Source: Minisyncoccota bacterium (GTDB lineage Bacteria; Patescibacteriota; Minisyncoccia; Phycocordibacterales; Zambryskibacteraceae). From it: a stretch of DNA of 64,000 bases. Position 1 is the first letter of the stretch. Each line of letters starts with the position of its first letter. The notes under the pieces were generated by a model. That model worked only from the letters and a program-made list of their open reading frames with translations. It was not told the DNA's origin and searched no databases. This document shows positions 16,007 to 51,444 of this stretch, piece after piece. The stretch lies in assembly GCA_036517475.1 (NCBI GenBank), contig DATDVZ010000006.1, positions 8,226 to 72,225 on the forward strand, written 5' to 3'. Position numbers and translations under genes: made by a program.

Positions 16007-16177
16007 TTAACAGGTACAGTGAACTTCTGCCTGACTACAACTTGCACACTTTGGCATGCAGTGTCTGTGAGAAGCAGGATCTCCATGAACATGACTTTCA
16101 TCATGATTTTCAGATTCAGCTCCGCAAATTGCACATTTATATCCTTTTGCTTCACCCTGACATTTGGCGCATTTCAT
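16007..16177 (-). CDS. Unannotated small Cys/His-rich protein (56 aa), putative metal-binding
   Basis: Verified translation MKCAKCQGEAKGYKCAICGAESENHDESHVHGDPASHRHCMPKCASCSQAEVHCTC. Five CxxC-type pairs plus His. Its ATG (16175-16177) is the last triplet of hairpin element copy 1. A terminator lies downstream. Confidence 0.45.
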   Translation of the reverse strand: MKCAKCQGEAKGYKCAICGAESENHDESHVHGDPASHRHCMPKCASCSQAEVHCTC

Positions 16178-16305
16178 CCCGTTAGAAGCAGGTCGCGGTC
16201 AACGAACTCTGCTTAATAATTTTTTTTGTAATTTTTCGACTTATTTTAAAATTGATTATTATATTTCCCATTTAAACCGTGACCGCGGCTTCTAACGGGA
16301 TTCAT
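16175..16305 (-). repeat. Long-hairpin repeat element, copy 1 (minus orientation). The 3' arm ends on the ATG of the small Cys/His ORF
   Basis: On the minus strand: 5' arm AUGAAUCCCGUUAGAAGCCGCGGUC, an AT-rich core of about 75 nt, 3' arm GACCGCGACCUGCUUCUAACGGGAUG. The arms pair over 21 bp with a 4-nt bulge (ACCU). The 27 nt at 16178-16204 are identical to the reverse complement of the copy 2 3' arm. Confidence 0.75.
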
Positions 16306-16632
16306 AATTTAAAATTATATATTTATAAGACAGACCTCATTATACAAAAATTTTAAATTAGGGACAAATCAGAGTTTGCGATGTTTGAAATATTCAATCT
16401 GACGCAATCTGTTTTGAGCTTCTGCTTTTGTTCTATAAGATCCCATATTGCGACCTTTTTCATAAACTACTTTATAACCACCCTTAATTTTTTTAATCAT
16501 TAGTTTTTAAAATAAACGAAAGATATGAACTATCAGTGAACTCTGTTCTACCATTCGGTCGAGGGTTCCATAAAATTTATTAAAAAATTCTATAAGCGCT
16601 ATTTTGTTTTTTTGTATTAAAATGGGCAAGCT

Positions 16633-17286
16633 TTATGCTTGCCCCCTCCAATCAGTTCTTTTCCAGCCGTGACGCACCAGAACTGCTGGTTTTTTAGGAA
16701 GCTTGCCTTGTTTTGCAAGTTTCTTTTTTTGTCTATCGCGTCTACGCCGGACATCTCTTACCCAAAGCAGTGCCTGAGCCGAGAGCCCGTAATCCCAGCC
16801 ATATCTTTGAATTCTTTTGTTTTCATGAAATTGTCTACGCAGACATGCCCAATATCGTGACTTGATTGCCGGACCTCTTACAATACTCATGAACTGCCTG
16901 CATTCTGGGCAAAGCGGCCTGCTTAACACCCGAAGTTGGGCAACTCTAGCATTCAAAAGGAGATTCCATAGAAAATTTTTAGTTCTCCGAATTTCATGGC
17001 TGAAATAGAGAGGCGCTCCTGTCTCCTTGATCAGAACCCAGCCAGAATCACTCTCCCGAGCCTCTTGCATTTCTTTAAGCCATGTTGTCCAAGCAACAAT
17101 ATCAAGTCCATTTGCGCTAAATATGAATCCCACTTCTCTGCCTCTGCGCGGATGGGGGGCCACAGCTGCAAATCTCACGATGTCTTTCCTTACTTCACTG
17201 CTTTCAAGCGGCCGGAAACCCATTTGCCTGAATTTTTTTTCAAGCCAGCTGAATCCGGCAGCATCAGGCAAAACTTGTCTAGGCAA
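16633..17286 (-). CDS. Hypothetical basic Trp/Arg-rich protein (217 aa) with a CxxC...C zinc-ribbon-like motif and a poly-basic tail; possible nuclease-like
   Basis: CPECRQF...YWAC and the C-terminal RRRRDRQKKKLAKQGK tail. GC content is noticeably higher than surrounding genes. No secure family assignment. Confidence 0.45.
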   Translation of the reverse strand: MPRQVLPDAAGFSWLEKKFRQMGFRPLESSEVRKDIVRFAAVAPHPRRGREVGFIFSANGLDIVAWTTWLKEMQEARESDSGWVLIKETGAPLYFSHEIRRTKNFLWNLLLNARVAQLRVLSRPLCPECRQFMSIVRGPAIKSRYWACLRRQFHENKRIQRYGWDYGLSAQALLWVRDVRRRRDRQKKKLAKQGKLPKKPAVLVRHGWKRTDWRGQA

Positions 17287-17354
17287 CTTAGAGCTCCTAA
17301 GGAACTTTCTACTTATTTTATAGATTATTTAAAGCAATAAATCAATCCTCAAAA

Positions 17355-17657
17355 CTATTTTTTTTCACGTAAGATAATTCTAGAAATTACAATTACAATA
17401 AGGGTAAGAACTATAGCGTATATGAATTTTGCAGTTATACCTTTACCCTCTGCCGGATAAATATAATCAATGAAAGCCTTAATTGCATCATTCCATGAAA
17501 GAGCAACAATGAGTCCTATGCCTGTCATAATATATCCGCGGACTTGTGATTGGAGTTCGCCTCTCATTTCTTTTTCTTTTTCAATTGCTTTATCAAAAAT
17601 TGGTGGCATGTAAACAATTCTAAAATTAAAATCCAAAAAAGTAAAAAGCTCCAGCAA
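17355..17657 (-). CDS. Small membrane protein (the probable start is the internal MPPIF at 17609)
   Basis: Two hydrophobic helices, about 84-100 aa. Confidence 0.45.
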   Translation of the reverse strand: MLELFTFLDFNFRIVYMPPIFDKAIEKEKEMRGELQSQVRGYIMTGIGLIVALSWNDAIKAFIDYIYPAEGKGITAKFIYAIVLTLIVIVISRIILREKK

Positions 17658-17667
17658 TGCCGGAGCT

Positions 17668-19464
17668 TTAATTTAAATACGAATCTTCTCTGTGTTCGTG
17701 ATACTGACGCCACAATTCCTGAAACTCTGGACAGTTGGTAAGTAATTCCTGAAGCGACCCTGAAGCAATAATCCTACCTTCACGGAACATATAAATAGTC
17801 CGGAATAACGGCAGTAGGTGTAGCCTGTGGACCGAAGAGATAATGGTCTTGTTCCGAAATTCGCGAAAGATGTTTCGGTAGACTCTCATCTCTGTCGCCG
17901 TATCGAGGCTCGATGTAGGCTCATCAAGAAGCACTATATCCTTATCGTGACAAGCAAGAAGCCCTCGAGCTAGCGCCAGACGCTGTTGCTGGCCCCCAGA
18001 GAGGTTAACTCCTTTTTCCTTAATTGATGAATGAAACTTTTTTGGCAATGCTTCCGCAACATCAGTGAAGCATGCCATATCGGTGAAATGGCGCACGAAA
18101 TCGATTTCATGATCTGCTCCCAAAGTAATATTTTCCAATATCGTGGTAGCAAAAATTTCCGGATTCTGAGGTATTAGCGCAATTGCTCTACTGATCCCCT
18201 TAAAACCATCAGTAATAATTTGACCGTCTACACTGAGACTAATAGTTCGTGGATGATAGATATCTCTAACGATGTTGAATAATGTAGATTTACCGCCTCC
18301 CGATTCACCGACGAGAGCTATCCGAGCGCCGCGTTCCATCAACATTGATACGTTCTCGAGGTGGAGATTGTTTCTTCCATCGTTTTGATACGAGAAGTTA
18401 AGGCCTCCTACCTCCAAACGCTGCCAATTCTCGGGCAATACATGGTTAGTAAAGTTTTCTGTCCTAAAGTCCTTGGTGAGTTTCTCGGAATTTGTGATCA
18501 GTGTTTTACGTTTGAGTACTTCACTATACATTTGTGTGAACTGGAAAAAAATCTCACTAATACGATCAAGGTATTTAATGAGTAGAAATACACTTCCTAT
18601 CAAGACACCTTGAGCTGTACCGATGTTTTGCCAGAAATACACTGACATAACTACGATTACCATCACCGAGCAGCAAATGCTTGTAAGAAACCATTTCGTT
18701 TCACCCAAGCGTTGATTGTGCTTAAAGAGTTCAAACGGCTTCTCAACTTTCTTCATAATCGCACTGAAGACCAGTTTCTCAACACGCAGAATAATTACAG
18801 TCGTAATATTACTTACGGCGTCAAACACGCTCTCCGAGATCTGATTCTCTGCACGATTAAGCTCTTCGTATTGGCTGACCATTACTTTGTCGAAGCGAAT
18901 TGTTATCCATGCTGAGATGAGAATCATCACTAGAACAATAAATGCTGCCGGCGGAGAAAAGTATGCAAGTATAAAGTAACTTACGACAAGTTGGACGATA
19001 GCGTAAATTATCTCGAAAGAGTCTCCAGAGAATGAGAATATCGCATTTGTCCCCTTTTCAATTTTGTCAATCGTATCCCCAGAATGATGATCCACATGCC
19101 ACTCCATCGGGAGTGTCATAACACCCTTCAGAAGAAATCGTCTGTAATTGAGCCGCACCTTGAAAGCATTGTAGCGTTCAATACAGCGCGCAGGTCCATG
19201 GAAAGACCAGAAGACAAGCTCAAAAAGAAGAGTCAACGAGAGGAGTCCGATCAGTACTCGAATGTTGCCAGTTGTTACTCCCTCTTTTTGGATTATGTTC
19301 ATAATCTTGGCTAATGCCAATGGGGGGCCAATAAGGTTGACGGTATTGGCCACAATAAACATGATCCAATACCACACCACCTTGCCCCGATTTCCCTCTG
19401 AATACCGCCAAGTTTTGCCAAACAGATAGAGAAGCGGATTGCGCCTCTCGCTTTGAGCCTTCAT
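17668..19464 (-). CDS. ABC transporter, fused permease/ATP-binding exporter (MsbA/MdlB type)
   Basis: Six-TM N-terminal half, then Walker A GESGGGKST, signature LSGGQQQRLALARGLL and Walker B ILLDEPTSSLD. Confidence 0.85.
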   Translation of the reverse strand: MKAQSERRNPLLYLFGKTWRYSEGNRGKVVWYWIMFIVANTVNLIGPPLALAKIMNIIQKEGVTTGNIRVLIGLLSLTLLFELVFWSFHGPARCIERYNAFKVRLNYRRFLLKGVMTLPMEWHVDHHSGDTIDKIEKGTNAIFSFSGDSFEIIYAIVQLVVSYFILAYFSPPAAFIVLVMILISAWITIRFDKVMVSQYEELNRAENQISESVFDAVSNITTVIILRVEKLVFSAIMKKVEKPFELFKHNQRLGETKWFLTSICCSVMVIVVMSVYFWQNIGTAQGVLIGSVFLLIKYLDRISEIFFQFTQMYSEVLKRKTLITNSEKLTKDFRTENFTNHVLPENWQRLEVGGLNFSYQNDGRNNLHLENVSMLMERGARIALVGESGGGKSTLFNIVRDIYHPRTISLSVDGQIITDGFKGISRAIALIPQNPEIFATTILENITLGADHEIDFVRHFTDMACFTDVAEALPKKFHSSIKEKGVNLSGGQQQRLALARGLLACHDKDIVLLDEPTSSLDTATEMRVYRNIFREFRNKTIISSVHRLHLLPLFRTIYMFREGRIIASGSLQELLTNCPEFQELWRQYHEHREDSYLN

Positions 19465-19856
19465 CAGTTTCTCCTTGTCTGTGAGTTTATGAGTTTGTGT
19501 GAAAGAACATTAAAGAACTATACAGCGTGCCTCGGCACGCTGTTTCAAAAACTCGATTAAGTAGAGATAATCAAATACTTAAAACAAAATGCCACTCTGA
19601 TATATAAGATACACCAAGAGTAACCGCTCTGCTGGGCGCGGTTTTGAATATATTTTTTTGTGACATGATTAGATTCATGTATTGAAACGATACCATGTAT
19701 TAGAAAATATTGCAAGTACTGTAAATCCCATATCAAAATTTTTGAAATTTTAAAAAATATAGTGTTATATTATTGAAATTAATGGAGGGGTGGCCCAAAA
19801 AACTTTACTGTCGTAAAGTTAATGGGTAAACAGAGTGATCTCGTGATAATTGCGGA

Positions 19857-19946
19857 GGAGGAGTGCGAGAGTGGTTGAATCGGCGTCCCTGGAAAGGACG
19901 TATACCGGAAACGGTATCAAGGGTTCGAATCCCTTCTCCTCCGCCA
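19857..19946 (+). tRNA. tRNA-Ser (anticodon GGA) with long variable arm and encoded CCA
   Basis: Manually folded. Acceptor GGAGGAG/CUCCUCC, D-stem CGA/UCG (3 bp, Ser-type), anticodon stem CGUCC/GGACG with loop CUGGAAA, variable hairpin AUACCG-GAAA-CGGUAU, T arm AAGGG-UUCGAAU-CCCUU, discriminator G, CCA. Confidence 0.8.
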
Positions 19947-20095
19947 TGTTCGGGAGAATCCATGCCCGTTCATCCCGCTAAGCGGGATATTTCGGGTCTC
20001 ACCCCCCAGCATGTTTCGGGACGAATCTTTCACCCTCCGCCATGAACATGAGAATCGTTGCCCGTTCATTTCGTATCGCGAAATGTTTCAGGTTT
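19938..20095 (+). repeat. Tandem duplication of the tRNA-Ser 3' end plus downstream flank (two roughly 95-bp units, about 70% identical); att-like remnant
   Basis: Unit 1 at 19938-20030 starts cctccgccatgttcgggagaatccatgcccgttcat. Unit 2 at 20034-20095 starts cctccgccatgaacatgagaatcgttgcccgttcat. A third cctccgccatg lies at 23048-23058, downstream of the 942-aa gene. Confidence 0.6.
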
Positions 20096-20190
20096 TACTA
20101 TTGCAAGCTAGAAATTTACAAATGCGGATAGTTTATCTCGTTAAAAATTAATAATGTTAAAATATTGCATATATCTAACTAATTCTATTT

Positions 20191-23019
20191 ATGGAAAGTG
20201 GATATTTTTATTCAAAATCAACCGGACTCTATGTAGCGCGAGGCCCACTGCGAATTGACGCCAGAGTTATTGCGGCAGCATCTCAGTGCGGAGTTAAACT
20301 TCATTGGGATGATGAGGGAAGAATTAATAATCTTGACTTCCTAGAGTCTGTACAATTACTCAAAAGTTTTGGCGCAACAATGATGAGTGTAAAAGAGTAC
20401 TGGCTTATAATGGCCGAAGTCCGAGCCGCTAATGAAGTTGAACTCTTAACTCAATTGCAATCTGACCGTTATGCCGAATGGCTTAACAGTGTTTTTGAAA
20501 ATAAAGAGTCAGTTATTGAGGATATTGAGGTAATAAATAAAGAAGGAAAAAATACTTATAGCGGAAAAAGAAAATGGGTTCAAATGCCTTACGGACATCC
20601 CGGCTGGTTCAATACAGATGAAATTGATTTAGATACCGGACTTCCGAAAAGAGTGGAGTTAAACAGGGAAAAACACGCTACAACATGGAAATATTGGTCG
20701 TTTTGCGATTACGATTATGTAGCGGCAGGCGTCAGAGGATGGGTTACTTCTGTCGGCAAACCTTCTTTGGACTTAGGCATTCCGATAGACGCCCGCCAGC
20801 CGAATTTATTAATAAGAGAATGCCGGAAAGCGCCGCTTGAAGAGAGTATTGATCCCGATATAACAAAAAAGGCAGAGATATTGATCTCGCGATTTAAAAA
20901 TATCGTAGAGACCGGAGAGTATGAATCTTTTTATAAGTCGCGTTCAGAATTTTTGCTTTTTATAAAGAATTACGGATATTTATTTTCCAGATCACAGGAA
21001 ACTAAAATATATAAAATAAGGGAGAAACTGGTTGAAATTGCCGGGCTAATCACACTCCTTGCCAGAAAAGAGGATAAAAGTGAAGAGTTTTTGGAAATAC
21101 AGGACATTGCCAGAAAAAGCTGGGGGATTGATTCAGATATTACTTATGAGGATTTTGCCACATTTGTAATGACGAGCAGGCAGAGGTTGGAGGAGGCCTT
21201 GTGCAAGACTTATCCGATTGTCTTTGTTATCGGACATAAAAATCCTGATACGGACGCGGTAGTAAGTTGTCTTTTTGAAGCATATAGGAATCATATCGCT
21301 GACGGAAAAAGAGTTGTCTTTGTGCCGGTTGTAGAGGGATATAAAATGCCATTAGAAATTTCAAGACTTCTGGGCGAGAAGTTGACCGCGAGAATAGTTT
21401 TTACCGGAGAAAAACTCTATCAAAATATTTTGCATTTAGGTCAGGCCAGATGGATAATGACTGACCATAGTTTGAATCCATTGATACAAAAATTTGTTAT
21501 TTCAATAGTTGATCACCATATCCCCTCGGCTATTGCTCTGAGACAAGAGATACCGAAAACAATTGAATTTATTGGCTCAACGTCAGCTTTGATTGTGGAG
21601 CGTATCTATGGCCTTGGCCTCACTATCCCAGGCGATTTAGCCAGAATACTCTACGGGGCAACACTAATGGACACGGAGAACCGCTCCCCATATAAAATGA
21701 CACAAAGGGACGTCTTAATCATGGATGATCTGAAAAATATCGCGGAGGTTCAAAGCGACGGAGAATTTTTCCACGATTTGATGAGCAAATTACTTAATAG
21801 TGACGACGCTGAAGATTTGTTTGCGCGTGATTACAAAGAAGATTGGCAATTTTTCGGCTTCGCCGTCGCAAAAGTCAAACACTTTTTTGACAGCAGAGGG
21901 TCTGTTCTTAAACCAGAACTTGCGGATAATCTTGTCAAACTTGCTCATAGAAATAATGCGGACAAGAACTTGCCTCTGACGCTCATTAAACTTGTTGATT
22001 ATCTTGATGATAACAGCACTATAAACCGCGAGAGAGTATATCTCATATTCAATGAAAACATTTTCAGAGAATTCAATGAAACGATGTTTACTTTACTCAA
22101 AACTATCATTCACAGCACTTTCAAAGGAAAGGAATCCATGTCAGTAACGAGGGAGTATATTGAGTTTTGGGGAGTAGGCGATCAGTTGTCACGAAAGCGC
22201 GTTGTCCCGCTTTTTGATCCTGTGGCTACGGCTTTCAACAGATTTTTCTTCTCACCCGCGTCCGGCTTATACGCAAAGAGAGAGTTTTTAAAAAATACCA
22301 AAAGAGTAAGAGATGCTGCGCTATCACTTGGGATCAAACTATCATCGGATAACCAGGAAAGAATAAACCATGTTACCTATGGAGAGGCTATTAGACTTCT
22401 TGATGAGCTCGGATTTGAAGCGATGAGTCTGCCGGAATATTGGAATGTCTACAATGACGCAAAAAGTGTTTCCGACAACCAGATGCTCGGCCAACTCAAA
22501 AGTGACGGGTTTGTTGAGTTTCTTCACACAATAATTGAGGAGAATAATTCACTGACCCACAAGCCTGAAATTATTCGCGGCAAAACAAGTTTTGTTTATG
22601 AAGACTCTGTTGTTGAAATTGAATACAATTATCAAGGGGAGAAAAGCGAGGTCAAAATCCCAGAGGGCAAACCGGGCCTTTTTTCTCCAAGCGATGTTTA
22701 CCCGGAGACAGGACTACCTGCAAATGTAAAGTCGCCAAACATTTATAATGACCCGACACTTTGGCGTTACTGGTCGCCAGACGCGTCAATAAATGTTGCA
22801 ACTCGGGGGTATATATTTCTGCTCGGTCAACCAGCACTGGATCTAAAAGTGCATTTGTCAGAGGCTTTTCAGTGTCTTGGGATAAGACCGTGCTGTAAAA
22901 AAGTTGAGTTGCCAGAAGTAGAAATATCCGCTAACAGTAGCGGGGTATCGCTAACTATTTGGGAGGAGGGAGAAAAATTTAGTATCCGTGAGGCTGATCT
23001 TTTTAAAAACCTTGGTTAA
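20191..23019 (+). CDS. Large multidomain protein (942 aa): a central DHH-family phosphoesterase domain flanked by two copies of an uncharacterised roughly 200-aa domain
   Basis: DHH motifs I (GHKNPDTDAVVS), III (IVDHH) and IV (GSTSALIV). The N-terminal region (about 10-210) and the C-terminal region (about 690-900) are clearly homologous (GHPGWFNTDEIDLDTGLPKRVE vs GKPGLFSPSDVYPETGLPANVK; TWKYWS vs LWRYWS; PSLDLGI vs PALDLKV). Confidence 0.7.
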   Translation: MESGYFYSKSTGLYVARGPLRIDARVIAAASQCGVKLHWDDEGRINNLDFLESVQLLKSFGATMMSVKEYWLIMAEVRAANEVELLTQLQSDRYAEWLNSVFENKESVIEDIEVINKEGKNTYSGKRKWVQMPYGHPGWFNTDEIDLDTGLPKRVELNREKHATTWKYWSFCDYDYVAAGVRGWVTSVGKPSLDLGIPIDARQPNLLIRECRKAPLEESIDPDITKKAEILISRFKNIVETGEYESFYKSRSEFLLFIKNYGYLFSRSQETKIYKIREKLVEIAGLITLLARKEDKSEEFLEIQDIARKSWGIDSDITYEDFATFVMTSRQRLEEALCKTYPIVFVIGHKNPDTDAVVSCLFEAYRNHIADGKRVVFVPVVEGYKMPLEISRLLGEKLTARIVFTGEKLYQNILHLGQARWIMTDHSLNPLIQKFVISIVDHHIPSAIALRQEIPKTIEFIGSTSALIVERIYGLGLTIPGDLARILYGATLMDTENRSPYKMTQRDVLIMDDLKNIAEVQSDGEFFHDLMSKLLNSDDAEDLFARDYKEDWQFFGFAVAKVKHFFDSRGSVLKPELADNLVKLAHRNNADKNLPLTLIKLVDYLDDNSTINRERVYLIFNENIFREFNETMFTLLKTIIHSTFKGKESMSVTREYIEFWGVGDQLSRKRVVPLFDPVATAFNRFFFSPASGLYAKREFLKNTKRVRDAALSLGIKLSSDNQERINHVTYGEAIRLLDELGFEAMSLPEYWNVYNDAKSVSDNQMLGQLKSDGFVEFLHTIIEENNSLTHKPEIIRGKTSFVYEDSVVEIEYNYQGEKSEVKIPEGKPGLFSPSDVYPETGLPANVKSPNIYNDPTLWRYWSPDASINVATRGYIFLLGQPALDLKVHLSEAFQCLGIRPCCKKVELPEVEISANSSGVSLTIWEEGEKFSIREADLFKNLG

Positions 23020-23121
23020 GTATTTTTAATTAAATATTTCGGGTCCCCCTCCGCCATGTTTCCTGTCTCACACTTCTCCACAAAAAATGTGGAAGTAACC
23101 AGAATACTTTATTAAAAACTT

Positions 23122-23478
23122 ATGACTTATAAACAAAAAGCTGGTCTTGTAGCATGGATGCATCTTTTCTATATTTTGATTGTAATAGTCAGCCTGCCTC
23201 TGCTTTTTTTAATTTCTTGGTGGTATAAAGTTGCTCTTGTGCTCGCAATTTCAACTTTTTTGTCATGGATCCCTTTTAAGGGGTATTGCTGGATAACTAG
23301 GCTGGAAAATAAATTCCTCAAACAATATAATCCAGATTCTTCATACAATAATGGTTTTATAGAACATTATTCAAAAAAGTTTTTTAATACAAATTTTTCA
23401 CCAGTTACACTTATAGTAATACTTGATTCGTATTTACTTTCTCTTTTCATATTATCCTTACTTAATTTTCTGTATTAG
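23122..23478 (+). CDS. Hypothetical small membrane protein
   Basis: 118 aa, 3-4 predicted TM helices. Confidence 0.45.
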   Translation: MTYKQKAGLVAWMHLFYILIVIVSLPLLFLISWWYKVALVLAISTFLSWIPFKGYCWITRLENKFLKQYNPDSSYNNGFIEHYSKKFFNTNFSPVTLIVILDSYLLSLFILSLLNFLY

Positions 23479-26816: not shown

Positions 26817-27221
26817 TTACTTTATTTTCAATTTATAAGTCTTGAATGATTTTCCTAAACCAATTCTTTTCACATAATCAGTAAAATCTAGCGGCAAAGA
26901 TGGACCAACCCAGACACTCTTCTGAATCATGACAAAATCAAAGCTCTTAAGTTGACGGCGAAACCAATCTCGCTCTTTTTTCATTGTGTGAGGAACATCG
27001 TAAATAACTAATAAGTTTTTTGTAGAACCCTTCACATTATAATTTGTAAAAGAACGCAGATAATGCCGTCTTGAAATACTCTCGAGAACTCGCTTCCTTT
27101 TTTTAACCAAACTGAAAATATTTGGATCAGGTAGGTTAAAATTACCAAGGGGCACACCTTTGTAAGATTTTTTCCCTTTTTTCATAAATTTATTCTGTCC
27201 ATAAAATAATACTACTACCAT
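26817..27221 (-). CDS. Solo Cas2/VapD-fold endoribonuclease-like protein with a roughly 60-aa basic N-terminal extension
   Basis: LLVIYDVPHTMKKERDWFRRQLKSFDFVMIQKSVWV aligns well with the type II Cas2 core (e.g. [37 protein letters not shown]). No cas1 and no CRISPR array in the window. The start codon is the terminal triplet of the upstream palindrome. Confidence 0.45.
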   Translation of the reverse strand: MVVVLFYGQNKFMKKGKKSYKGVPLGNFNLPDPNIFSLVKKRKRVLESISRRHYLRSFTNYNVKGSTKNLLVIYDVPHTMKKERDWFRRQLKSFDFVMIQKSVWVGPSLPLDFTDYVKRIGLGKSFKTYKLKIK

Positions 27222-32048: not shown

Positions 32049-32117
32049 ATTTATAAAAGTTATTTTATGAGGGTTATATTATAGAGAGAGCCCACTTGCT
32101 GTCAAATTTTAATTTTT

Positions 32118-32153
32118 ACAAAACAAAAAGGGCCCACAACTTCGTGAGCCCTT
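32118..32153 (-). terminator. Intrinsic terminator downstream of the GC-rich gene
   Basis: Minus strand: stem aagggc/gccctt followed by UUUUUGUUUUG. Confidence 0.5.
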
Positions 32154-32173
32154 GTTACTACCACCTTCGTCGA

Positions 32174-32797
32174 TCAGAGATCGGCGAAAGCGTCCTCCAC
32201 CGCCTGGCCGGCGCGCGAGTGCTTCTTCGCACGCTTGGCGTCCTTCACCTCCTCGTCCGCCGCTCCTTGGAGACGGGCGATTTCCTCGCCCATCTGCCGG
32301 TAGAGCTCGACGAGGGTCCCTTCGGAGGCACGAACCTTGTCGGCCTCGCGGGGTCCTTCGCGAGACTCCAGCGCTTCGCGAAGCTCATCGAGCTTCGCTA
32401 CCGCCGCGTCTGCGTAGTCCGCCCACGCCTCGGGGGCATGACGCTGGATGTAATCCAGCCGCCCAGCGAAGAACTTGGGTGACCCCCCGATGAAGGCCAG
32501 GAGCACCTTGCGCATATCATCGCGCAAGACCTTTCCGGCACCGATAACCTTGCGGAAATCGGATTCGGGAGGATTCATCCCGGCTTCGTCCCGCCCCTTG
32601 AGGTCTTTGGCCCCATCGCGGAAGTCATGGAACCGCCCCACAAGGTCGTCCGAGAGGTGAAAACCCGCGAGCCCGAACTCATTCCGAGTCCCCTCGCCGA
32701 GCTTGTAGAACCACACCACCTCCTTGGCGATCGCCGCGAGGCCGAGGAGATTGGGTGCGAACTCCAACCTCTTCTCCTGCTTTTGACTCTGGGCCAT
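32174..32797 (-). CDS. Hypothetical protein (207 aa) encoded by a roughly 65% GC island; probable horizontally acquired or chimeric segment
   Basis: Long ORF whose DNA is strikingly GC-rich compared with all flanking sequence. Ala/Arg/Glu-rich product, no recognisable motif. The track ORFs on the opposite strand (32096-32890) are high-GC frame artefacts. Confidence 0.5.
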   Translation of the reverse strand: MAQSQKQEKRLEFAPNLLGLAAIAKEVVWFYKLGEGTRNEFGLAGFHLSDDLVGRFHDFRDGAKDLKGRDEAGMNPPESDFRKVIGAGKVLRDDMRKVLLAFIGGSPKFFAGRLDYIQRHAPEAWADYADAAVAKLDELREALESREGPREADKVRASEGTLVELYRQMGEEIARLQGAADEEVKDAKRAKKHSRAGQAVEDAFADL

Positions 32798-32979
32798 GGG
32801 CCCCTTGCCTTTCCTCCCCGTGGGGAAATATTGCGTTATGCTTCGAAAACTTCAGAAAGCTACTATAGAACTGTTACAGTAGCATTATAGCATACTCAAT
32901 TTATATGTCAAGCAGAAGAACATAAAATATAGAACATGAAACATAGAACATCAAATAAATGGCTTAAAATAGCCATAAT

Positions 32980-33353: not shown

Positions 33354-33480
33354 ATGAATCCCGTTAGAAGCCGCGGTCGCAGTTTATAAAATTTACTAAA
33401 TTTTTAAAATGAGTACATCGATAGATTATCAAAATAACTTTATTCAGGAAGCGTTGACCGCGACCTGCTTCTAACGGGAT
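33354..33480 (+). repeat. Long-hairpin repeat element, copy 2 (plus orientation). The 3' arm ends on the ATG of the solute-binding protein gene
   Basis: 5' arm ATGAATCCCGTTAGAAGCCGCGGTC at 33354-33378. 3' arm GACCGCGACCTGCTTCTAACGGGAT at 33456-33480. The ATG is at 33479-33481. Flanked on both sides by ATGAAT. Confidence 0.75.
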
Positions 33481-35200
33481 GAATTTGTTTTCTCAATTTA
33501 AATTTCCAAAAGAAGAATCATTTCAGAGAGCTTTTTCTTCGTTCTCACTAACTGAAAAAGTTGTTTTTTGGATTCTTGTATTTCTTTTTTCTGTTTCAAC
33601 ATTTCTACTTTTATATAAAGTCAGTGCATCTTTTTCTTTTGAAGTTCCCACTGAGGGAGGAAAAATCAAAGAGGGAGTTGTTGGAAGTGCTCGATTTATT
33701 AACCCACTTCTTTCAATAAGTGAGGCTGATAAAGATCTGACTTCATTAATTTATTCTGGACTACTTAAAGCAACACCCGAAGGAAACTTAGTCCCTGACT
33801 TGGTGGAAAATTATAGTATTTCAGAAGATGGGCTCGTTTACGATTTCAAACTCAAAGAAAACCTAAAATTTCACGACGGATCAAAAGTTACAACAGATGA
33901 TATTGAATTTACAATTACTAAAGCTCAGGATCCAACTCTCAAAAGTCCAAGAAGAGCTAGTTGGGATGGGGTGAGTATTGAAAAAATAAATGAAAGAGAA
34001 ATCAGATTAGTACTAAAGCAACCTTATGGACCGTTCCTCTCAAATGCAACACTTGGAATCCTGCCAAAAAAACTTTGGAAAAATGTCAGCGCCGATGAAT
34101 TCGCTTTCAGTGATCTCAATATTAATCCGGTTGGTTCCGGCCCCTATAAAGTTGGAAGTGTCAAAAAAAATTCTTCTGGATTACCTAGTGAATATAGTCT
34201 GAAATCTTTCAGAAATTATGCAGTTAGGAAGCCCTACATTCCTACTGTCAACATAAAATTTTATTCAAATGAGAATGATTTAATTGATGCGTTAAGAAGT
34301 GGTGAGATAAATAGTGCAAATATTTCCTCACAGGCAGCCAAAGATCTCAAAAAGAATTTCAGAGTTGAAAGAACGCTACAACCTCGTATATTTGCAGTTT
34401 TTTTCAATCAGAATCAAGCAAATATTTTTGCTGAAAAGGCCCTGCGTCAAGCGCTCGATATTTCAGCGGATAAAAGTTCAATTGTTAACGAGGTGCTTAA
34501 AGGTTACGGCCAAGAAATTTCATCACCTATTCCAAATACATCAATAAAAAATGGTTTTGTGGGAGATAGGACTGAAAAAGCAAAAGAAATTCTAACAAAG
34601 GCGGGTTGGAAACTTTCTTCAACAACGGGGATCATGGAAAAAAAGACAAAATCGGCAACATTGAAACTTTCTTTTACCATCTCAACTAGCGAAGCGCCGG
34701 AACTTAAGGCCACAGCAGAAAAACTCATTTCAGACTGGCAAAAAATTGGAGCTGAAGTTACACTGGCCATTTATGAAACGGGGGATCTCAACCAAAATAT
34801 CATAAGACCAAGAAAATATGATGCACTATTTTTTGGCGAGATAATCGGACGCGATAGGGATATTTACCCATTCTGGCACTCCTCCCAACGTAATGACCCG
34901 GGATTAAACGTAGCAATGTATGTAAATAACAGGGCTGATAAACTTCTGGAGGAAGCAAGAGCGGCATCGAATATAGAGATACGTGATGCAAAGTATGAAA
35001 TGTTTCTCAAAGAGATAGAAGCTGACGTTCCCGCCGTCTTTGTTTACTCACCACAGTTCCTCTATGTTGTTCCGGAAAAAATCAAGGGAATAAAACTTGG
35101 CACTGTTACAACAGCGTCCGAAAGATTTACAGATATTGAAAATTGGTATATGCAAACAACAAGGGTATGGAAAATATTTAGTACGAATGTTACGAATTAG
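33479..35200 (+). CDS. ABC transporter substrate-binding protein, family 5 (oligopeptide/dipeptide/nickel type), membrane-anchored
   Basis: 573 aa, N-terminal TM helix, SBP family 5 core. The start codon is embedded in hairpin element copy 2. Confidence 0.75.
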   Translation: MNLFSQFKFPKEESFQRAFSSFSLTEKVVFWILVFLFSVSTFLLLYKVSASFSFEVPTEGGKIKEGVVGSARFINPLLSISEADKDLTSLIYSGLLKATPEGNLVPDLVENYSISEDGLVYDFKLKENLKFHDGSKVTTDDIEFTITKAQDPTLKSPRRASWDGVSIEKINEREIRLVLKQPYGPFLSNATLGILPKKLWKNVSADEFAFSDLNINPVGSGPYKVGSVKKNSSGLPSEYSLKSFRNYAVRKPYIPTVNIKFYSNENDLIDALRSGEINSANISSQAAKDLKKNFRVERTLQPRIFAVFFNQNQANIFAEKALRQALDISADKSSIVNEVLKGYGQEISSPIPNTSIKNGFVGDRTEKAKEILTKAGWKLSSTTGIMEKKTKSATLKLSFTISTSEAPELKATAEKLISDWQKIGAEVTLAIYETGDLNQNIIRPRKYDALFFGEIIGRDRDIYPFWHSSQRNDPGLNVAMYVNNRADKLLEEARAASNIEIRDAKYEMFLKEIEADVPAVFVYSPQFLYVVPEKIKGIKLGTVTTASERFTDIENWYMQTTRVWKIFSTNVTN

Positions 35201-42793: not shown

Positions 42794-42835
42794 AACATTC
42801 CAACATTCTGCAGAATGTTGGAATGTTTTTTCTTG
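42794..42835 (+). terminator. 34-bp perfect palindrome (copy 2) plus T-tract; terminator between convergent genes
   Basis: aacattccaacattctg|cagaatgttggaatgtt followed by TTTTTTCTTG. The core aacattctgcagaatgtt is identical to copy 1 at 219-252. Confidence 0.6.
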
Positions 42836-44269: not shown

Positions 44270-44429
44270 ATAACGGCAAAACTATACCAAATTGGCCATT
44301 CTTTTCAATTTTTTTTGAGCAAATATACATGGGAGGATAATTACCATGATTAAATAATTGACTTAAAATTTTATTTATGCAGGAATATAAAAAGATTGTT
44401 AATTAAAACTTGATAAAAAGGAGGAACGG

Positions 44430-46298: not shown

Positions 46299-46879
46299 GC
46301 AATCATCGCATTTGGGAAACCAAATGCGATTTTTTTAAAAGAAGTTATAATCATAAAATGAAATTACTACTCTTAAGCGGGAATTCGATTTCAAATAAAA
46401 AATGGATTGAAGAAGTTGGACAGATACTTAATCCACTATTTGATGAAATAAAGATTCATTACTATAAGCATTGGGAAACGGGTGAGGAGATTATTGATCT
46501 TGATTCGGAACTTTCAACCCTAACTGCAGAAATTAATGAATGGAAGGACTATATGATCTTCGCTAAGTCTGCCGGTTGTCTTTTAACATTAAAAGGAATT
46601 TATGAAAAAAAAATTCATCCACTGAAATGTGTGTTTGTCGGTGCAGCCATTGATTGGGGCAAAGAAAGGCAATTTTTAGTCGGAGATTGGTTAAAAAATT
46701 ATAATACTACGACTTTTTTTATTCAGAAGACCAATGATCCAGTTATTTCCTTTAAAAATTTAAAAAAAATACTGGAGGATTTAGATGTTAAAAATTATTC
46801 ACTGAAAGAAATTCCTGGAAACGACCACAATTATCTTGACCTTGAATTTTTACGGCAAGTCATAGAAAATTTTAAATAA
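46295..46879 (+). CDS. Alpha/beta-hydrolase-fold protein (the probable start is MKLLLL at 46358)
   Basis: Nucleophile-elbow-like AKSAG and overall alpha/beta-hydrolase pattern. About 174 aa. Confidence 0.45.
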   Translation: MSNHRIWETKCDFFKRSYNHKMKLLLLSGNSISNKKWIEEVGQILNPLFDEIKIHYYKHWETGEEIIDLDSELSTLTAEINEWKDYMIFAKSAGCLLTLKGIYEKKIHPLKCVFVGAAIDWGKERQFLVGDWLKNYNTTTFFIQKTNDPVISFKNLKKILEDLDVKNYSLKEIPGNDHNYLDLEFLRQVIENFK

Positions 46880-46911
46880 TTAATTCAATAATATTCACTT
46901 ATAATTAACTC

Positions 46912-47214
46912 ATGGAAAGCTACAACAAATTAGTAAGAGATGGAATTCCTCAAATTCTTGATGAAAAAGGTATTCCTTATGAGAGAAGAACCGCTACTCC
47001 TGAAGAATATCGACTGGAATTGATCAAAAAACTTCTTGAGGAAGCAGCCGAGTTAGCGACATCAGGAACACCAGAAGAACTAGCTGATGTTATTGAAGTA
47101 ATTGAGGCACTTAAGAAACTGCCGGAATTTGCTGAAGTGGAAGCGATAAGAGCAAGGAAGCTGCAAGAACGGGGCGGTTTTGAGGAAAGAATAATACTTA
47201 AGGGGGAAAAATGA
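46912..47214 (+). CDS. MazG-like all-alpha nucleoside-triphosphate pyrophosphohydrolase
   Basis: KLVRDGIPQI...EEAAELA...EELADVIEVIEAL matches the small MazG/HisE-type NTP-PPase pattern. 100 aa. Confidence 0.55.
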   Translation: MESYNKLVRDGIPQILDEKGIPYERRTATPEEYRLELIKKLLEEAAELATSGTPEELADVIEVIEALKKLPEFAEVEAIRARKLQERGGFEERIILKGEK

Positions 47215-47295
47215 TTAAAAAAAGATTGAAGAAAAATAGGTTTCATTCAATTTATATTAATCTTGTAGCTGAAACTACTTAGATATAATAGAGGG

Positions 47296-49947
47296 ATGGA
47301 AAAATTGTGGCATGCAGCATCTCTAGAAAAGGTTTTTGGCCTGCTTGAAAGCAAGAAAGAGGGTCTTTCGGAAATTGAGGCGCAAAAGAGAATTAAAAAA
47401 TATGGGCATAATACCTTACCGGAAGAAAAACCATACTCAAGATTAAGGCTATTTTTAAGCCAATTTGAAAGTCCGCTTGTTCTCATTCTCGCTGTTGCCG
47501 GCGGAGTATCTCTTTATTTAGGGCATTATTCTGACTCCATTTTCATAATTATTGTTTTGCTTATCAACACTACTGTTGGTTTTTACCAGGAAAATAAAGC
47601 CAATTCATCCCTTCTGGCGCTCAAAAAAATGGTTAAAATCAGCGCCAGAGTTTTCCGCGACGGAAACCTCAAAGAAATTGACAGCTCCGATCTCGTGCCC
47701 GGAGATATTGTAACTTTGAATGCCGGAGACAAGGTGCCTTGCGACGGAAGAATAATTGAAAGTAAAGATTTAAAAATTGATGAGTCAACTCTTACCGGAG
47801 AATGGCTCGCCGTCAAAAAATCAGCTGGAGAAACAGACGAGAAAACAGTGCTTGCGGATAGAAGCAATATGGTTTATCTCTCCACCATTGTTGAGAGTGG
47901 CGAGGCTCTGATTATCGTAACTCAAACAGGTAGACGTGCAGCAATAGGAAAAATAGTTTTGCTTTTGCGGGATACCAAAGAGAGAAAAACTCCCCTTCAG
48001 AAGCAAATCGCATTTCTGTCAAAAGTAGTCGGGCTTTTCATAATTATCATTGTCAGTTTTGTGGTTATTGTCGGCTCATTTGGCAATGAGACATTTGTTG
48101 ATATCTTCATTACCTCTCTTGCTCTAGCCGTATCAGCCACACCTGCGGGACTCTTGCCGGCGGTTACAGTAATTTTGGTTTTTGGCATGCGGCGAGTATT
48201 GGAACAAAACGGACTTGTTCGTAAACTTGCCGCCAATGAAACTCTTGGCGCCATAACAGTAATCTGCACTGATAAAACCGGCACACTTACAGAAGGTAAA
48301 ATGCAGGTAAGCCATATCATGACCGGAACACGCGAGCTTTTAAATGACAGCGGCTTATCAAAACATGTAAAAGACAGTAATGGTCTTGAGGCCCATATTA
48401 TTGCGCTTAAAATCGCCACTTTGGGGAGTGATGCGTTTGTTGAAAATCCGGAAGATGAATTCCATGAATGGATCGTCCGGGGCAAGCCGACAGACCGCGC
48501 CCTTTTGATTGCTGGAATGCATGCAGGGTTGAACAAAAAAGAGCTTGATCAAAATTATCGGTTATTGGAGAAAATTAATTTTAATTCCGATGCCAAATAT
48601 TCCGCTTCATTGCGCATGCATGATGGACAAAAACTCCTATTCGTTCTCGGGGCGCCGGAAGTTGTAATAGAGCGCTCACAAGAAATTTATCTTGACGGCA
48701 GACGAGAAAAACTTGATTCAAGAGAATTTATTGAGCTTAACGAAAAATTAATTACTTTAACATCACAGGGTCTAAGAGTTGTGGCAGCGGCAATGAAGGA
48801 AGTCAGAGAGGACGGCAATGAATTAAGTGAGATGGTAAATAAACTTACACTGGTCGGATTTATCGCGCTAAAAGATCCTCTGCGTAAAGATGCTAAGCAT
48901 TCAATTATTACCGCCAAAGAAGCCGGTATTAGAGTTGTGATTATTACCGGAGACCACGCACTAACGGCAAAATCAGTAGCAAACGAGATCGGAATCCCGG
49001 CTGATAAAGAAAATATTCTGGAAGGAAAAGAGTTGGAAGAGTTGTCGTCCGCAGAGTTAAGAGAAAAATGCAGGAATGTTTCAATTTTTGCCCGTGTTGC
49101 ACCGAATCACAAACTGCAGATCATTGATGCTTTGCAAAAAAACGGAGAGATTGTGGCAATGATAGGAGACGGCATCAATGACACTCCGGCGCTTAAAATG
49201 GCTGATGTCGGGGTCTGCCTCGGCTCGGGAAGCGATATTGCCAAGGAAGTGTCCGACGTCGTCCTTCTTGATGATAATTTCAAAACCGTTATCAAGGCAA
49301 TAGAGCAAGGCAGAGTTATTTTCCAAAATATCCGTAAAGTTTTTGTTTATCTTGTTGCTGATGATTTTTCAGAGCTTTTTTTATTTTTGATGGCAATGGT
49401 TCTGGGTTTGCCCTTGCCTTTGCTTGCAGCTCAAATTCTTTGGATAAATTTGGTAGAGGACGGTTTTCCAGCTGTAGCTCTCACCACAGAACAAGAAACG
49501 AAAGGAGTTATGGAAGAAAAACCAAGAAATCCAAAGGAAGGAATATTAAACAAACCGATGAAAAATTGGATGGCTTCTATTTTCTTCATCACTGGAATAG
49601 CCGCGTTTATGACATTTTTTATATTGTTGAAGTTAACTGGAGATTTGGAAAGAACCCGCTCTGTCGTTTTTGCTCTGATGGCTCTTGATTCGCTCGTATT
49701 CGCTTTCAGCGTCCGCTCACTCAAGCGTTCAATTTTCAGAACAGATATTTTTTCAAACACTCTGCTCGTGGGAGGCGCCTTTATTGGGTTAATTCTTCTT
49801 TTTGCCGCACTGTATTTACCAATGCTTCAGAAAATTCTTCATACGCATCCTCTAATCTGGAGCGAATGGGCGGTAATCGTCTCCGTAAGCTTAATTGAAA
49901 TTTTATTTATAGAGTGGTTTAAAAAAAGAAACTTTTCACCGCAGTAG
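47296..49947 (+). CDS. P-type cation-transporting ATPase (P2/P3-type, Ca2+/Mg2+-like)
   Basis: DKTGTLT phosphorylation site, TGES-like loop, GDGINDTPALKMADVGV hinge. 10 TM helices. 883 aa. Confidence 0.9.
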   Translation: MEKLWHAASLEKVFGLLESKKEGLSEIEAQKRIKKYGHNTLPEEKPYSRLRLFLSQFESPLVLILAVAGGVSLYLGHYSDSIFIIIVLLINTTVGFYQENKANSSLLALKKMVKISARVFRDGNLKEIDSSDLVPGDIVTLNAGDKVPCDGRIIESKDLKIDESTLTGEWLAVKKSAGETDEKTVLADRSNMVYLSTIVESGEALIIVTQTGRRAAIGKIVLLLRDTKERKTPLQKQIAFLSKVVGLFIIIIVSFVVIVGSFGNETFVDIFITSLALAVSATPAGLLPAVTVILVFGMRRVLEQNGLVRKLAANETLGAITVICTDKTGTLTEGKMQVSHIMTGTRELLNDSGLSKHVKDSNGLEAHIIALKIATLGSDAFVENPEDEFHEWIVRGKPTDRALLIAGMHAGLNKKELDQNYRLLEKINFNSDAKYSASLRMHDGQKLLFVLGAPEVVIERSQEIYLDGRREKLDSREFIELNEKLITLTSQGLRVVAAAMKEVREDGNELSEMVNKLTLVGFIALKDPLRKDAKHSIITAKEAGIRVVIITGDHALTAKSVANEIGIPADKENILEGKELEELSSAELREKCRNVSIFARVAPNHKLQIIDALQKNGEIVAMIGDGINDTPALKMADVGVCLGSGSDIAKEVSDVVLLDDNFKTVIKAIEQGRVIFQNIRKVFVYLVADDFSELFLFLMAMVLGLPLPLLAAQILWINLVEDGFPAVALTTEQETKGVMEEKPRNPKEGILNKPMKNWMASIFFITGIAAFMTFFILLKLTGDLERTRSVVFALMALDSLVFAFSVRSLKRSIFRTDIFSNTLLVGGAFIGLILLFAALYLPMLQKILHTHPLIWSEWAVIVSVSLIEILFIEWFKKRNFSPQ

Positions 49948-50028
49948 AAAATTTAAGTTGATTAAGCATATAGACTGTGATAGTACTGAAACAGAAACAT
50001 CAACAACTTTCCCCCTAAGGAGCATTAA

Positions 50029-50421
50029 GTGGACAAGACCGAGATATATACCAGCCTGGAAATCCTCTGTGTCTTCTTCTGGTTTGTTTTTGACGGCTTC
50101 TGGCTTCTGGAGTGGAAGGCCCTCACCTACATTTTCTGCGCCCTTTCTCTGTTAATGGCTGTAGCAATGTTTTTCTACATCAAGCGCGAGAAGGCGCTTG
50201 TGTTAATCGCCTTGGCCGACAGTTCGTGGCTTGCCTGCAATATCACTTGGGCTCTGGGTGATCTCTCACAAATTCAGACAGCAGTCTCGGCAGCAAAAGT
50301 ACTTTTTCTTCTCGGAATCATGTTTTTTCTCGGGGCATTCTATGTTGCCGAGGCAAGAAAAAGAATTTCCAACCTCGTCTTGAGCAGGTTGAGGATAATG
50401 AAGTTTTTTGAGAGAAAATAA
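50029..50421 (+). CDS. Hypothetical membrane protein (130 aa), compositionally GC-elevated
   Basis: Four hydrophobic helices. GC visibly higher than the neighbours. Confidence 0.4.
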   Translation: MDKTEIYTSLEILCVFFWFVFDGFWLLEWKALTYIFCALSLLMAVAMFFYIKREKALVLIALADSSWLACNITWALGDLSQIQTAVSAAKVLFLLGIMFFLGAFYVAEARKRISNLVLSRLRIMKFFERK

Positions 50422-50518
50422 ATTTCCTACAATATGAAGCTGTTCATTGACAATAATTAAGTAGTGAACAGTTTTTTTATATTAAAAAAGAGCGAGTTTT
50501 CCCGCTCTCAAAAGATAT

Positions 50519-51217
50519 TCAATCTGTTAAAACAAGTCTGGCCATATCATTAAAAGAGCACTCTCTATCTTCAGCAGATACCTGTGTTCCGTGATGGAGC
50601 GAATCACTCACTGTAAGAATACTGAGTGCTTTTACTCCATATCGTGCAGCAACTGTGTAGAGTTCCGCACTTTCCATCTCAACAGCAAGAACTCCGTACT
50701 GAGCCCAAAGTCTCCATTCTTCAGGATCAGGACCATAGAAAGTATCGGTTGCTAGGATGTTGCCAACCCGGACAGGAATGTTTAGTCTTTTAGACCTCAT
50801 TTGCGCAACTGCCAACAGTTCCCAGTCAGCAATCGGAGCAAAATCCATTCCCTTAAAACGCCTGCGGTTGATATTTGAATCAGAACAGGATCCTTGGGCT
50901 AAGATTATTTCGCGAAGCCCAATTTCTGGCTGAAGAGCGCCGCAACTTCCAAGACGAATGATATCCTTTACACCATAATCACGAATAAGCTCGTGAACGT
51001 AGATGCTTAAGGACGGCATACCCATTCCACTTCCCTGAATCGAAACTCTCACCCCTCTTCGGGTTGTTCCAGTAAATCCCAGCATATTGCGAGTGCGATT
51101 ATACTGAACAATATCAGTTAGCCAATTCTCGGCAATAAACTTCGCCCTCAATGGGTCGCCTGGTAAAAGCACTCTTGAGGCAATTTGACCGGGGTTAGCG
51201 CTAATATGAATACTCAC
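50519..51217 (-). CDS. deoD: Purine nucleoside phosphorylase, DeoD-type (PNP/UDP family 1)
   Basis: LLPGDPLRA and GMGMPSLSIYVHEL motifs. 232 aa. Confidence 0.8.
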   Translation of the reverse strand: MSIHISANPGQIASRVLLPGDPLRAKFIAENWLTDIVQYNRTRNMLGFTGTTRRGVRVSIQGSGMGMPSLSIYVHELIRDYGVKDIIRLGSCGALQPEIGLREIILAQGSCSDSNINRRRFKGMDFAPIADWELLAVAQMRSKRLNIPVRVGNILATDTFYGPDPEEWRLWAQYGVLAVEMESAELYTVAARYGVKALSILTVSDSLHHGTQVSAEDRECSFNDMARLVLTD

Positions 51218-51320
51218 AATCTCCTCCTGAGGAATTCCATAAGCTAAACTAGCAGATCAAAATATTAAGTCAATAATTATAATTTTGAATTAAAATTTGG
51301 TGCTATGCTTTAGTTACTTG

Positions 51321-51444
51321 TCCCGTTAGAAGCCGCGATGTAATTTAAAAAAAGTAAGTATACTTATTTAATATGATAAGGTTGAGTAATTATCAATATA
51401 ACTATTTTCAGAGAACGTCAATCGCGATCTGCTTCTAATGGGAT
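51321..51444 (+). repeat. Long-hairpin repeat element, copy 3 (plus orientation, diverged). The 3' arm ends on the ATG of pcm
   Basis: 5' arm TCCCGTTAGAAGCCGCGAT at 51321-51339. 3' arm ATCGCGATCTGCTTCTAATGGGAT at 51421-51444. Relative to copies 1 and 2, both arms carry the compensatory change GGTC/GACC to GATC/GATC, and a G-T (G-U) wobble sits opposite CTAATGGG. Confidence 0.7.

Follow-up and report, generated by a model that had tools for sequence, protein, structure and literature searches.

Start-codon hairpin repeats of Patescibacteria as putative miniature members of a mobile family with a GIY-YIG nuclease-encoding form

Free-standing GIY-YIG homing endonuclease genes, such as seg and mobE of phage T4, are selfish genes inserted between genes of the host, frequently in stop-start overlap; their products possess a DNA-binding domain and target a single long site within one gene, and the genes spread through repair-mediated copying between alleles. 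We know of none with inverted-repeat ends, target duplications or miniature derivatives. Proteins of the UPF0213/YhbQ/SLX1 branch, which includes the structure-specific endonuclease SLX1, are regarded as single-copy cellular enzymes, and none of them is, to our knowledge, the gene of a repeat-bounded mobile element the termini of which encode the first and last residues of the protein. [quoted passage not shown] The present study concerns a hairpin element found three times in a 64,000-nt stretch of the genome of a Minisyncoccota bacterium (GCA_036517475.1, contig DATDVZ010000006.1, positions 8,226 to 72,225; hereafter the window, with a GC content of approximately 38-39%), which had been described in an earlier note drawn from the DNA letters. 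We interpret the three hairpins as non-autonomous, MITE-like members of a mobile CPR family whose autonomous form would encode a GIY-YIG nuclease, a reading that takes in the proposed mobilisation and translational coupling and to which we assign a probability of roughly 0.78.

The three hairpin copies and their family

The element proper measures 119-122 nt in the three copies and ends, in each, on the ATG of an unrelated gene. The copies, their flanks, their hosts and the open reading frames (ORFs) they contain are as follows.

16178-16299, minus strand: copy 1, putatively non-autonomous hairpin element, 122 nt
16300-16305, minus strand: left flank of copy 1, read as the upstream target duplicate ATGAA plus T
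16305-16246, minus strand: upstream ORF (uORF) of copy 1 from the left-flank ATG, 19 aa, MNPVRSRGHGLNGKYNNQF
16319-16314, minus strand: TATAAT box of copy 1, 8 nt upstream
16173-16177, minus strand: downstream ATGAA of copy 1, the start of the host ORF
16007-16177, minus strand: host of copy 1, a 56-aa Cys-rich ORF
16182-16271, minus strand: short core ORF (mini-ORF) of copy 1, MGNIIINFKISRKITKKIIKQSSLTATCF, with its TAA 4 nt ahead of the host ATG
33360-33478, plus strand: copy 2, putatively non-autonomous hairpin element, 119 nt
33354-33359, plus strand: left flank of copy 2, read as the upstream target duplicate ATGAA plus T
33354-33389, plus strand: uORF of copy 2 from the left-flank ATG, MNPVRSRGRSL
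33479-33483, plus strand: downstream ATGAA of copy 2, the start of the host gene
33479-35200, plus strand: host of copy 2, a family-5 solute-binding protein of 573 aa
33409-33474, plus strand: mini-ORF of copy 2, MSTSIDYQNNFIQEALTATCF, with its TAA 4 nt ahead of the host ATG
51322-51442, plus strand: copy 3, putatively non-autonomous hairpin element, 121 nt; arm subtype CGCGAT/ATCGCG; outer stem contains a G-U pair
51316-51321, plus strand: left flank of copy 3, ACTTGT in place of the ATGAA repeat, which pairs with AUGAGU of the host
51373-51438, plus strand: mini-ORF of copy 3, MIRLSNYQYNYFQRTSIAICF, with its TAA 4 nt ahead of the pcm ATG
51443-52063, plus strand: host of copy 3, pcm

The 5' arm of all three copies reads CCCGTTAGAAGCCGCG(G/A)T(C) and the 3' arm GA(C/T)CGCG-A(C/T)CT-GCTTCTAA(C/T)GGG, with the host ATG immediately after; the arms of copy 1 are CCCGTTAGAAGCCGCGGTC and GACCGCG-ACCT-GCTTCTAACGGG. 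Five occurrences of the arm motif were counted in the window, against 0.2 expected. Folded as RNA, the three hairpins reach -40 to -48 kcal/mol (z -4.9 to -6.5), and as single-stranded DNA -22 to -27 kcal/mol; in the RNA fold of copy 3, pairing reaches into the first pcm codons through G-U pairs. The only ORFs within the copies are uORFs and mini-ORFs of 11-29 codons, each core holding an ATG-started mini-ORF of 21-29 codons that ends at the TAA of the 3' arm. The pcm protein of the window is also found on Rifle aquifer metagenome contigs, and its homologues are almost all from Patescibacteria.

Much of what the earlier note described was found again: the three hairpins at their sites, each on the start codon of an unrelated ORF; the 4-nt bulge in the arms and the change from GGTC/GACC to GATC/GATC in copy 3; the upstream MNPVRSRG ORF; and the ATGAA(T) direct repeat at copies 1 and 2, with none at copy 3. 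The pairing of the A and U of the AUG within the hairpin was seen in the RNA folds. Its statement that the core sequence is not conserved did not hold, as the cores align with 76% mean column identity and each contains a mini-ORF. The count of three copies stands for this hairpin type, a profile search with nhmmer over the 64 kb having returned no further one, but overlooks a shorter fourth relative at 61235-61324. The ACTTGT left flank of copy 3 recurs at L004 (6901), L010, L080, L095 (5671) and L111 (4393), where it can pair with the host start region; L-numbers here and below are locus labels.

These loci come from a family scan, an exact-pattern search over one genome per species, which returned at least 120 loci, nearly all of them in CPR metagenome-assembled genomes (MAGs) of Saccharibacteria, Paceibacteria and Nomura-, Kaiser-, Levyi-, Sungii-, Moran- and Liptonbacteria. 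The hairpin family is very large and spread across Patescibacteria (CPR). Approximately 100 complete elements were extracted, among which the outer 9-10 bp are invariant (CCCGTTAGA...TCTAACGGG) and the inner stems of the subfamilies differ in compensating fashion (GAAGC/GCTTC, GAAAT/ATTTC and GAGAC/GTCTC; CGCGGTC/GACCGCG versus CGCGATC/GATCGCG). In a 74-sequence alignment the stem comprised 19-21 paired positions, 97.6% of the stem cells were paired, and seven stem pairs were changed on both sides, a level reached by no shuffle. Since G-U pairs (26) did not clearly exceed A-C pairs (17) in the stems, this covariation cannot tell selection on RNA from selection on DNA, or from a single protein that recognises the two ends.

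Insertion at start codons

When 84 elements were oriented from arm asymmetry alone, an ATG-started ORF of at least 50 aa abutted the bulged-arm side in 76 of them and the other side in one. The left flank had the form ATGNN(N)T in 72 of 87 copies. In 54 of 59 copies, the variable flank positions 4-5 agreed between the two sides, where permutation gave 25.8 on average and 38 at most, and the left copy matched the host in 19 of the 23 hosts whose second codon does not begin with AA. Judged from this agreement, the flanks represent a duplicated target of 5 bp, start codon included, to which the element adds one T of its own. The duplicated targets are mostly ATGAA, less often ATGGA, ATGAG and others, and the duplication measures 4-7 bp in some copies. 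Tandem copies with one common ATGAAT were present at five loci (L039, L045, L073, L166 and L168), and in a nested case one element lies inside another with GCCTG duplicated.

All-against-all comparison of the host genes yielded a filled/empty pair, L263 versus L299/L285. The empty site of L299 reads ...GTGAGGTAGAT|ATGAACCTAACC, and its 78%-identical homologue L263 is filled as ...GTGAGGTAGAT|ATGAA-T, followed by a 43-nt element and ATGAACCTAACC. Homologues of pcm at 61-72% identity carry no element. In the search for empty sites, the near-identical pcm contigs all carried the element, and the 94%-identical neighbour found for L131 differs from it in the gene that follows. At the level of sequence, these comparisons show insertion in a single orientation at 5'-ATGAA-3', with duplication of 5 bp and with approximately 90% of the copies at a host start codon. 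The hosts are functionally diverse, including the Cys-rich peptide, the solute-binding protein, pcm, glycosyltransferases, YchF, Nramp and cation efflux proteins. The target duplication, the tandem and nested copies, the filled/empty pair, the unrelated hosts and the lack of an Rfam match together argue strongly for a mobile element rather than a gene-specific leader.

A cis-regulatory RNA leader of the host, in which the hairpin sequesters the start codon until a signal or protein opens it, would account for stable RNA hairpins that include the A and U of the AUG, for the G-U-mediated pairing of copy 3 over the first pcm codons, for the near-complete pairing and double changes of the stem, and for the fixed orientation relative to the gene. 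It is unlikely, however, because unrelated genes lie downstream and the element is missing from homologues of individual hosts, the flanks are those of a target duplication with copies in tandem and nested, some relatives encode a nuclease and others lie in frame inside ORFs, and the excess of G-U over A-C pairs is weak. No Rfam family corresponds to the element either, the only matches in the window at gathering thresholds being tRNAs and the best sub-threshold one WsnRNA46 (21.9 bits versus 65.3). An influence of the hairpin on translation of the host gene, as a secondary regulatory effect of inserted copies, is possible.

Among the readings offered in the earlier note, MITE-like insertion at ATGAAT is thus the one that gains support, from the hundreds of family copies spread over many CPR lineages, the target duplication, the tandem and nested copies, the filled/empty pair and the coding relatives with the same termini presented below; a cis-regulatory leader as the identity of the element gains none, given the unrelated hosts and the element-free pcm homologues. 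The compensatory arm changes which it took to favour selection on an RNA or cruciform are real, but they are equally expected for transposon ends. Its judgement that the element belongs to no known riboswitch or REP family agrees with the Rfam result and with the lack of REPIN/RAYT features. It had also asked whether copies in related genomes abut start codons and show arm covariation, and both were found, in the 76 oriented elements and in the seven doubly changed stem pairs respectively. The nuclease-encoding form, the mini-ORF and the bulge as a relic of the last codons of the nuclease are absent from that note.

Nuclease-encoding relatives and the proposed mechanism

Full-length relatives were sought as terminus pairs 230-6000 nt apart with matching flanks across all retrieved loci, and, beyond tandem copies and chance pairings, this search yielded only 275-nt GIY-YIG elements. 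The full-length form spans 272-284 nt, contains one gene for a GIY-YIG nuclease of 93-95 aa (UPF0213/YhbQ/SLX1-like branch) and is bounded by terminal inverted repeats of 10-12 bp, CCCGTTAGAG(A/G/C)(C/T) and the complement ending CTCTAACGGG. In the members at L067 (2980-3264), L056 and L131, a single ORF begins at the left ATG and crosses the 5' repeat (MNPVRD.../MSPVRE...), and the nuclease frame ends ...CTA ACG GGA TGA, the TGA overlapping the host ATG. The three proteins match PF01541 GIY-YIG (E ~1e-16, 60-61 bits versus a gathering threshold of 22.6), and among solved structures the nearest are UPF0213 proteins 1zg2 and 1ywl (BH0048, EF2693), together with SLX1. Homologues form at least 2295 protein clusters; among the best 120 of these, approximately 100 begin MNPVR and approximately 110 end L(S/A)LTG, which indicates that the terminal repeats themselves are translated. 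The residues at the GIY, YIG, Arg, Glu and Asn motif positions are invariant in 30 aligned members, and the protein consists of the catalytic domain only.

A metagenome scan recovered 75 distinct full-length elements of 272-284 nt, in which the duplication is perfect (5/5) in 49 cases, the left flank reads ATGAAT in 44 and the right flank ATGAA in 55; the architecture running from the left ATG to a TGA overlapping the host ATG is intact in 39. A full-length and a miniature copy share one contig at L067 and L056. Homology between the 3' ends of the two forms extends past the repeat (..gCGtTTCCTaTCTCTAACGGG versus ..CGCGAcCTGCTTCTAAcGGG), and the conserved bulge (CCT) of the miniatures corresponds to the Phe-Leu codons of the nuclease. 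Beyond the ends, no homology of the miniature cores to the nuclease gene was detected. Because full-length relatives share their termini, duplication, orientation and 3'-end homology, the window copies are best read as internally deleted, non-autonomous (MITE-like) derivatives of the full-length form. At L027 (1200-1530), a related GIY-YIG gene (46-49% identical) lies between the variant termini CCCTGTTAAAT...ATTTAACAGGG, which suggests sister families with different ends.

An ordinary MITE derived from a classical DDE-type insertion sequence that has identical ends and mobilises it, the GIY-YIG ORF being cargo or a passenger, would have in its favour that terminal inverted repeats and a short target duplication are DDE hallmarks and that the duplication is not of constant length (4 to 7 bp in some copies), as in some insertion sequence families. 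We regard it as very unlikely, since within the retrieved loci the distant terminus pairs led to GIY-YIG elements and, tandem and chance pairs aside, to nothing else, the first and last codons of the nuclease are the repeats, the protein forms at least 2295 clusters with invariant motif residues, and fixed orientation with a specific ATGAA target is unusual for DDE elements. Two other families of short palindromic DNA were rejected on sequence anatomy. Integron attC sites require RYYYAAC on the 5' side and GTTRRRY on the 3' side, whereas GTTAGA stands here on the 5' side and TCTAAC on the 3' side, which is the reversed order; a PATE derived from IS200/IS605, with a subterminal hairpin at each end and insertion 3' of a tetra- or pentanucleotide that is not duplicated, does not fit ends that pair together without subterminal hairpins of their own, nor a duplicated host sequence whose left copy tracks the second codon.

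The miniatures show features that bear on a possible translation of the element itself. The frame closed by the 3'-arm TAA (TAA-CGGG-ATG) has a median open length of 15 codons, versus 7 and 7 for the other two, and 40 of 86 copies have in it an ATG 10 or more codons upstream, versus 9 and 5. A mini-ORF ending 4 nt before the host ATG suggests translational coupling. The uORF from the left ATG continues to the TAA in 9 of 72 copies, many others stopping near the mini-ORF start, and it overlaps the mini-ORF ATG as ATGA in 7 of 34. Hexamers resembling a -10 box peak 12-13 nt before the element, at 6-7 nt from the left ATG, where they are present in 29-38% of genes with an element versus 16% of control ORFs, and Shine-Dalgarno-like motifs are rare overall (7-8%); with a -10-like box at this distance and so few Shine-Dalgarno motifs, many hosts, that of copy 1 included, look leaderless. 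An internal promoter for a leaderless mini-ORF was considered and rejected, as the -10-like boxes of the core are variably spaced to the ATG and a consensus scan was unconvincing. The same holds for a Shine-Dalgarno sequence that would act across the hairpin: some copies do have G-rich runs directly at the left ATG, but the motif is as infrequent as stated. Mini members of 41-59 nt on IMG/VR viral contigs (L263, L237, L287, L285, L299 and L300) have GGAGG 11 nt before the host ATG and so bring their own Shine-Dalgarno sequence; the viral contig scan gave 107 matches, mostly chance 14-mers, with a partner terminus in only nine.

As the sequence comparisons show, the upstream ATG copy created by insertion retains the promoter and initiation context of the host and becomes the start of the nuclease or, in miniatures, of a short uORF, and the downstream copy remains the host start. 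We propose that the nuclease would mobilise the full-length and miniature forms alike, through recognition of the invariant 9-10-bp termini and cleavage at or close to ATGAA; speculatively, the duplication and the single orientation could both follow from staggered cleavage of ATGAA, which is not palindromic. Ribosomes on the element ORFs would melt the hairpin and re-initiate at the host ATG, so that insertion would not silence the host gene, and the ATGA overlap of the nuclease would play the same part in the full-length form. The hairpin would then represent paired transposon ends, lengthened in the miniatures by the co-varying inner stem, with the ACCU/AUCU bulge a probable remnant of the nuclease Phe-Leu codons. 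Removal or skipping at the RNA level, by intron-like excision of the hairpin or ribosome bypassing between the duplicated AUGs, is extremely improbable: a stable hairpin between matching direct repeats and the often leaderless-looking hosts, which would place the upstream AUG at the transcript 5' end, speak for it, but there is no bulge-helix-bulge or ribozyme signature (a bulge-helix-bulge intron is ruled out on sequence anatomy) and nothing in Rfam, the DNA target duplication explains the repeats, full-length members are plainly translated ORFs, and the stop-start layout of the mini-ORF points to ordinary coupling.

Several observations weigh against a mobile family driven by the nuclease. 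Approximately 90% of copies sit at gene starts, whereas ATGAA specificity combined with loss of intragenic insertions predicts approximately 24%, a figure based on the 259 ATGAA sites of the window (16 at starts, 50 intergenic and 193 intragenic). One possible cause of the excess is that full-length copies are expressed only on landing at a start codon; another is targeting linked to structure or transcription. Copy 3 and five other copies carry ACTTGT instead of the duplicated ATGAA. The apparent arm conservation is inflated, as near-exact arms were required of the collected copies. No nuclease gene was found in the window, nor did any full-length member show AGAAGC subtype termini exactly as in the window copies. 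The mini-ORF (approximately 21 aa) is intact in no more than about half of the miniatures, neither a promoter nor a Shine-Dalgarno sequence is found consistently at its start, and its peptide is poorly conserved, which suggests that the act of translation itself is probably what matters. The nuclease as the mobilising enzyme, and movement itself, are deduced from sequence, and we know of no way in which a 94-aa GIY-YIG domain makes inverted-repeat insertions with a 5-bp duplication.

Relatives of other shapes were also encountered. The fourth relative of the window surrounds a tRNA gene:

61235-61324, unstranded: shorter relative with 10-bp termini CCCGTTAGAG / CTCTAATGGG around tRNA-Thr(GGT)
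61242-61315, minus strand: tRNA-Thr(GGT) gene

Its innermost repeat pair is the first acceptor-stem pair of the tRNA, the sole such case among 46 tRNAs in all retrieved DNA; it may represent either a tRNA taken up as cargo or a family member of tRNA origin, and a fragment resembling a tRNA 5' half adjoins it at 61336-61371. Short GTNNAC-flanked relatives of 45-99 nt lie in frame inside long ORFs (L077 1273-1356, L053, L055, L013 and L119), the insertion in ribD at L077 being read as VD-PVRSRPPTAVGVTTGTSGRLASNG-VD (PVRSR...ASNG); length is frame-compatible in 9 of 17 such relatives, several of them inside long ORFs.

Further repeats and islands of the window were noted separately. A GC-rich island at 32096-32800 (approximately 53%), which holds a 207-aa ORF (32174-32797, minus strand), looks compositionally foreign. 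A 32-nt perfect palindrome, ACATTCTAACATTCTGCAGAATGTTAGAATGT, occurs twice (220-251 and 42795-42826, 94% identical) and forms a separate repeat family, and a 26-nt inverted repeat, TTATCATCTACGCCATGGCGTAGATG (96% complementary), lies at 26766-26791/27219-27244 around a 134-aa ORF (26817-27221, minus strand). At 19857-20098, tRNA-Ser(GGA) is followed by two 77-nt direct repeats (19926-20002 and 20022-20098) that repeat the tRNA 3' end, an arrangement resembling an integration-site scar.

Significance and comparison with known systems

GIY-YIG nucleases are known to us from homing endonucleases and eukaryotic Penelope elements, and not as the sole gene of a repeat-bounded, target-duplicating bacterial element. 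We tentatively suggest, at somewhat less than even odds, a new class of prokaryotic transposable element whose sole protein would be a bare SLX1/UPF0213-like GIY-YIG nuclease cutting at the ends and at ATGAA. It would use start codons as a safe landing site, express the nuclease from the duplicated ATG and the host promoter, spare the host through stop-start coupling or a built-in Shine-Dalgarno sequence, give rise to large populations of miniatures at gene starts and in frame within genes across the CPR, and sometimes carry cargo such as a tRNA. No published description of the element was found in the open-access literature and bioRxiv, searched by topic and by literal DNA and protein strings, subscription-only papers lying outside this scope.

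If the proposal is correct, it would provide a new enzymatic basis for bacterial transposition and a new route by which selfish DNA persists in gene-dense reduced genomes, through start-codon landing, duplication and hand-over of ribosomes to the host gene. It would also account for 'GIY-YIG nuclease family protein' annotations numbering in the thousands and for many odd 5' regions of CPR MAGs, allow gene-start calls beside elements to be corrected and make insertion polymorphisms usable as strain markers. A small nuclease with short defined ends might further serve as a tool in Patescibacteria, whose genetics has only recently become possible (PMC10633639), and the element offers a direct handle on the translation of leaderless or Shine-Dalgarno-poor CPR genes.

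Bacterial MITEs such as the Correia/NEMIS elements of Neisseria, the pneumococcal RUP and ERIC resemble the window copies in their 100-150 bp length, long-hairpin terminal repeats, short target duplication, high copy number, co-transcription with neighbours and variable core between conserved ends. The window copies share all the defining traits of MITEs (size, repeats, duplication, copies and a coding relative) except a classical DDE partner, copy 3 being without the duplication. They differ in that their partner is a 94-aa GIY-YIG gene rather than a DDE transposase, their target is an ATGAA start codon entered in fixed orientation, and they carry ORFs laid out for stop-start coupling with the host.

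REPINs likewise consist of two inverted arms of approximately 20 nt around a variable spacer, form hairpins of approximately 100 nt and are numerous in compact genomes, but they lack a target duplication and have a GTAG motif and a single-copy HUH (Y1) RAYT, none of which was seen here; no RAYT-like ORF was observed adjoining the copies, although no systematic search for one was made. Rickettsia palindromic elements, the movement of which is also unexplained, can be accommodated within coding sequence while its frame stays intact, and the short GTNNAC-flanked relatives in frame within ORFs resemble them in this. Sequence and host lineage are unrelated, however, a candidate mobilising gene is available here, and the window copies, with their stop codons, precede the host ATG rather than interrupt an ORF.

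Homing endonuclease genes share the GIY-YIG domain with the full-length relatives, the window copies encoding none; they are distinguished from the present elements by the bare catalytic domain found here and by insertion before many unrelated genes. The UPF0213/YhbQ/SLX1 branch is the closest at the protein level, as judged from the Pfam GIY-YIG match and from the nearest structures, UPF0213 and SLX1, and the structure specificity of SLX1 would fit a hairpin or cruciform substrate.

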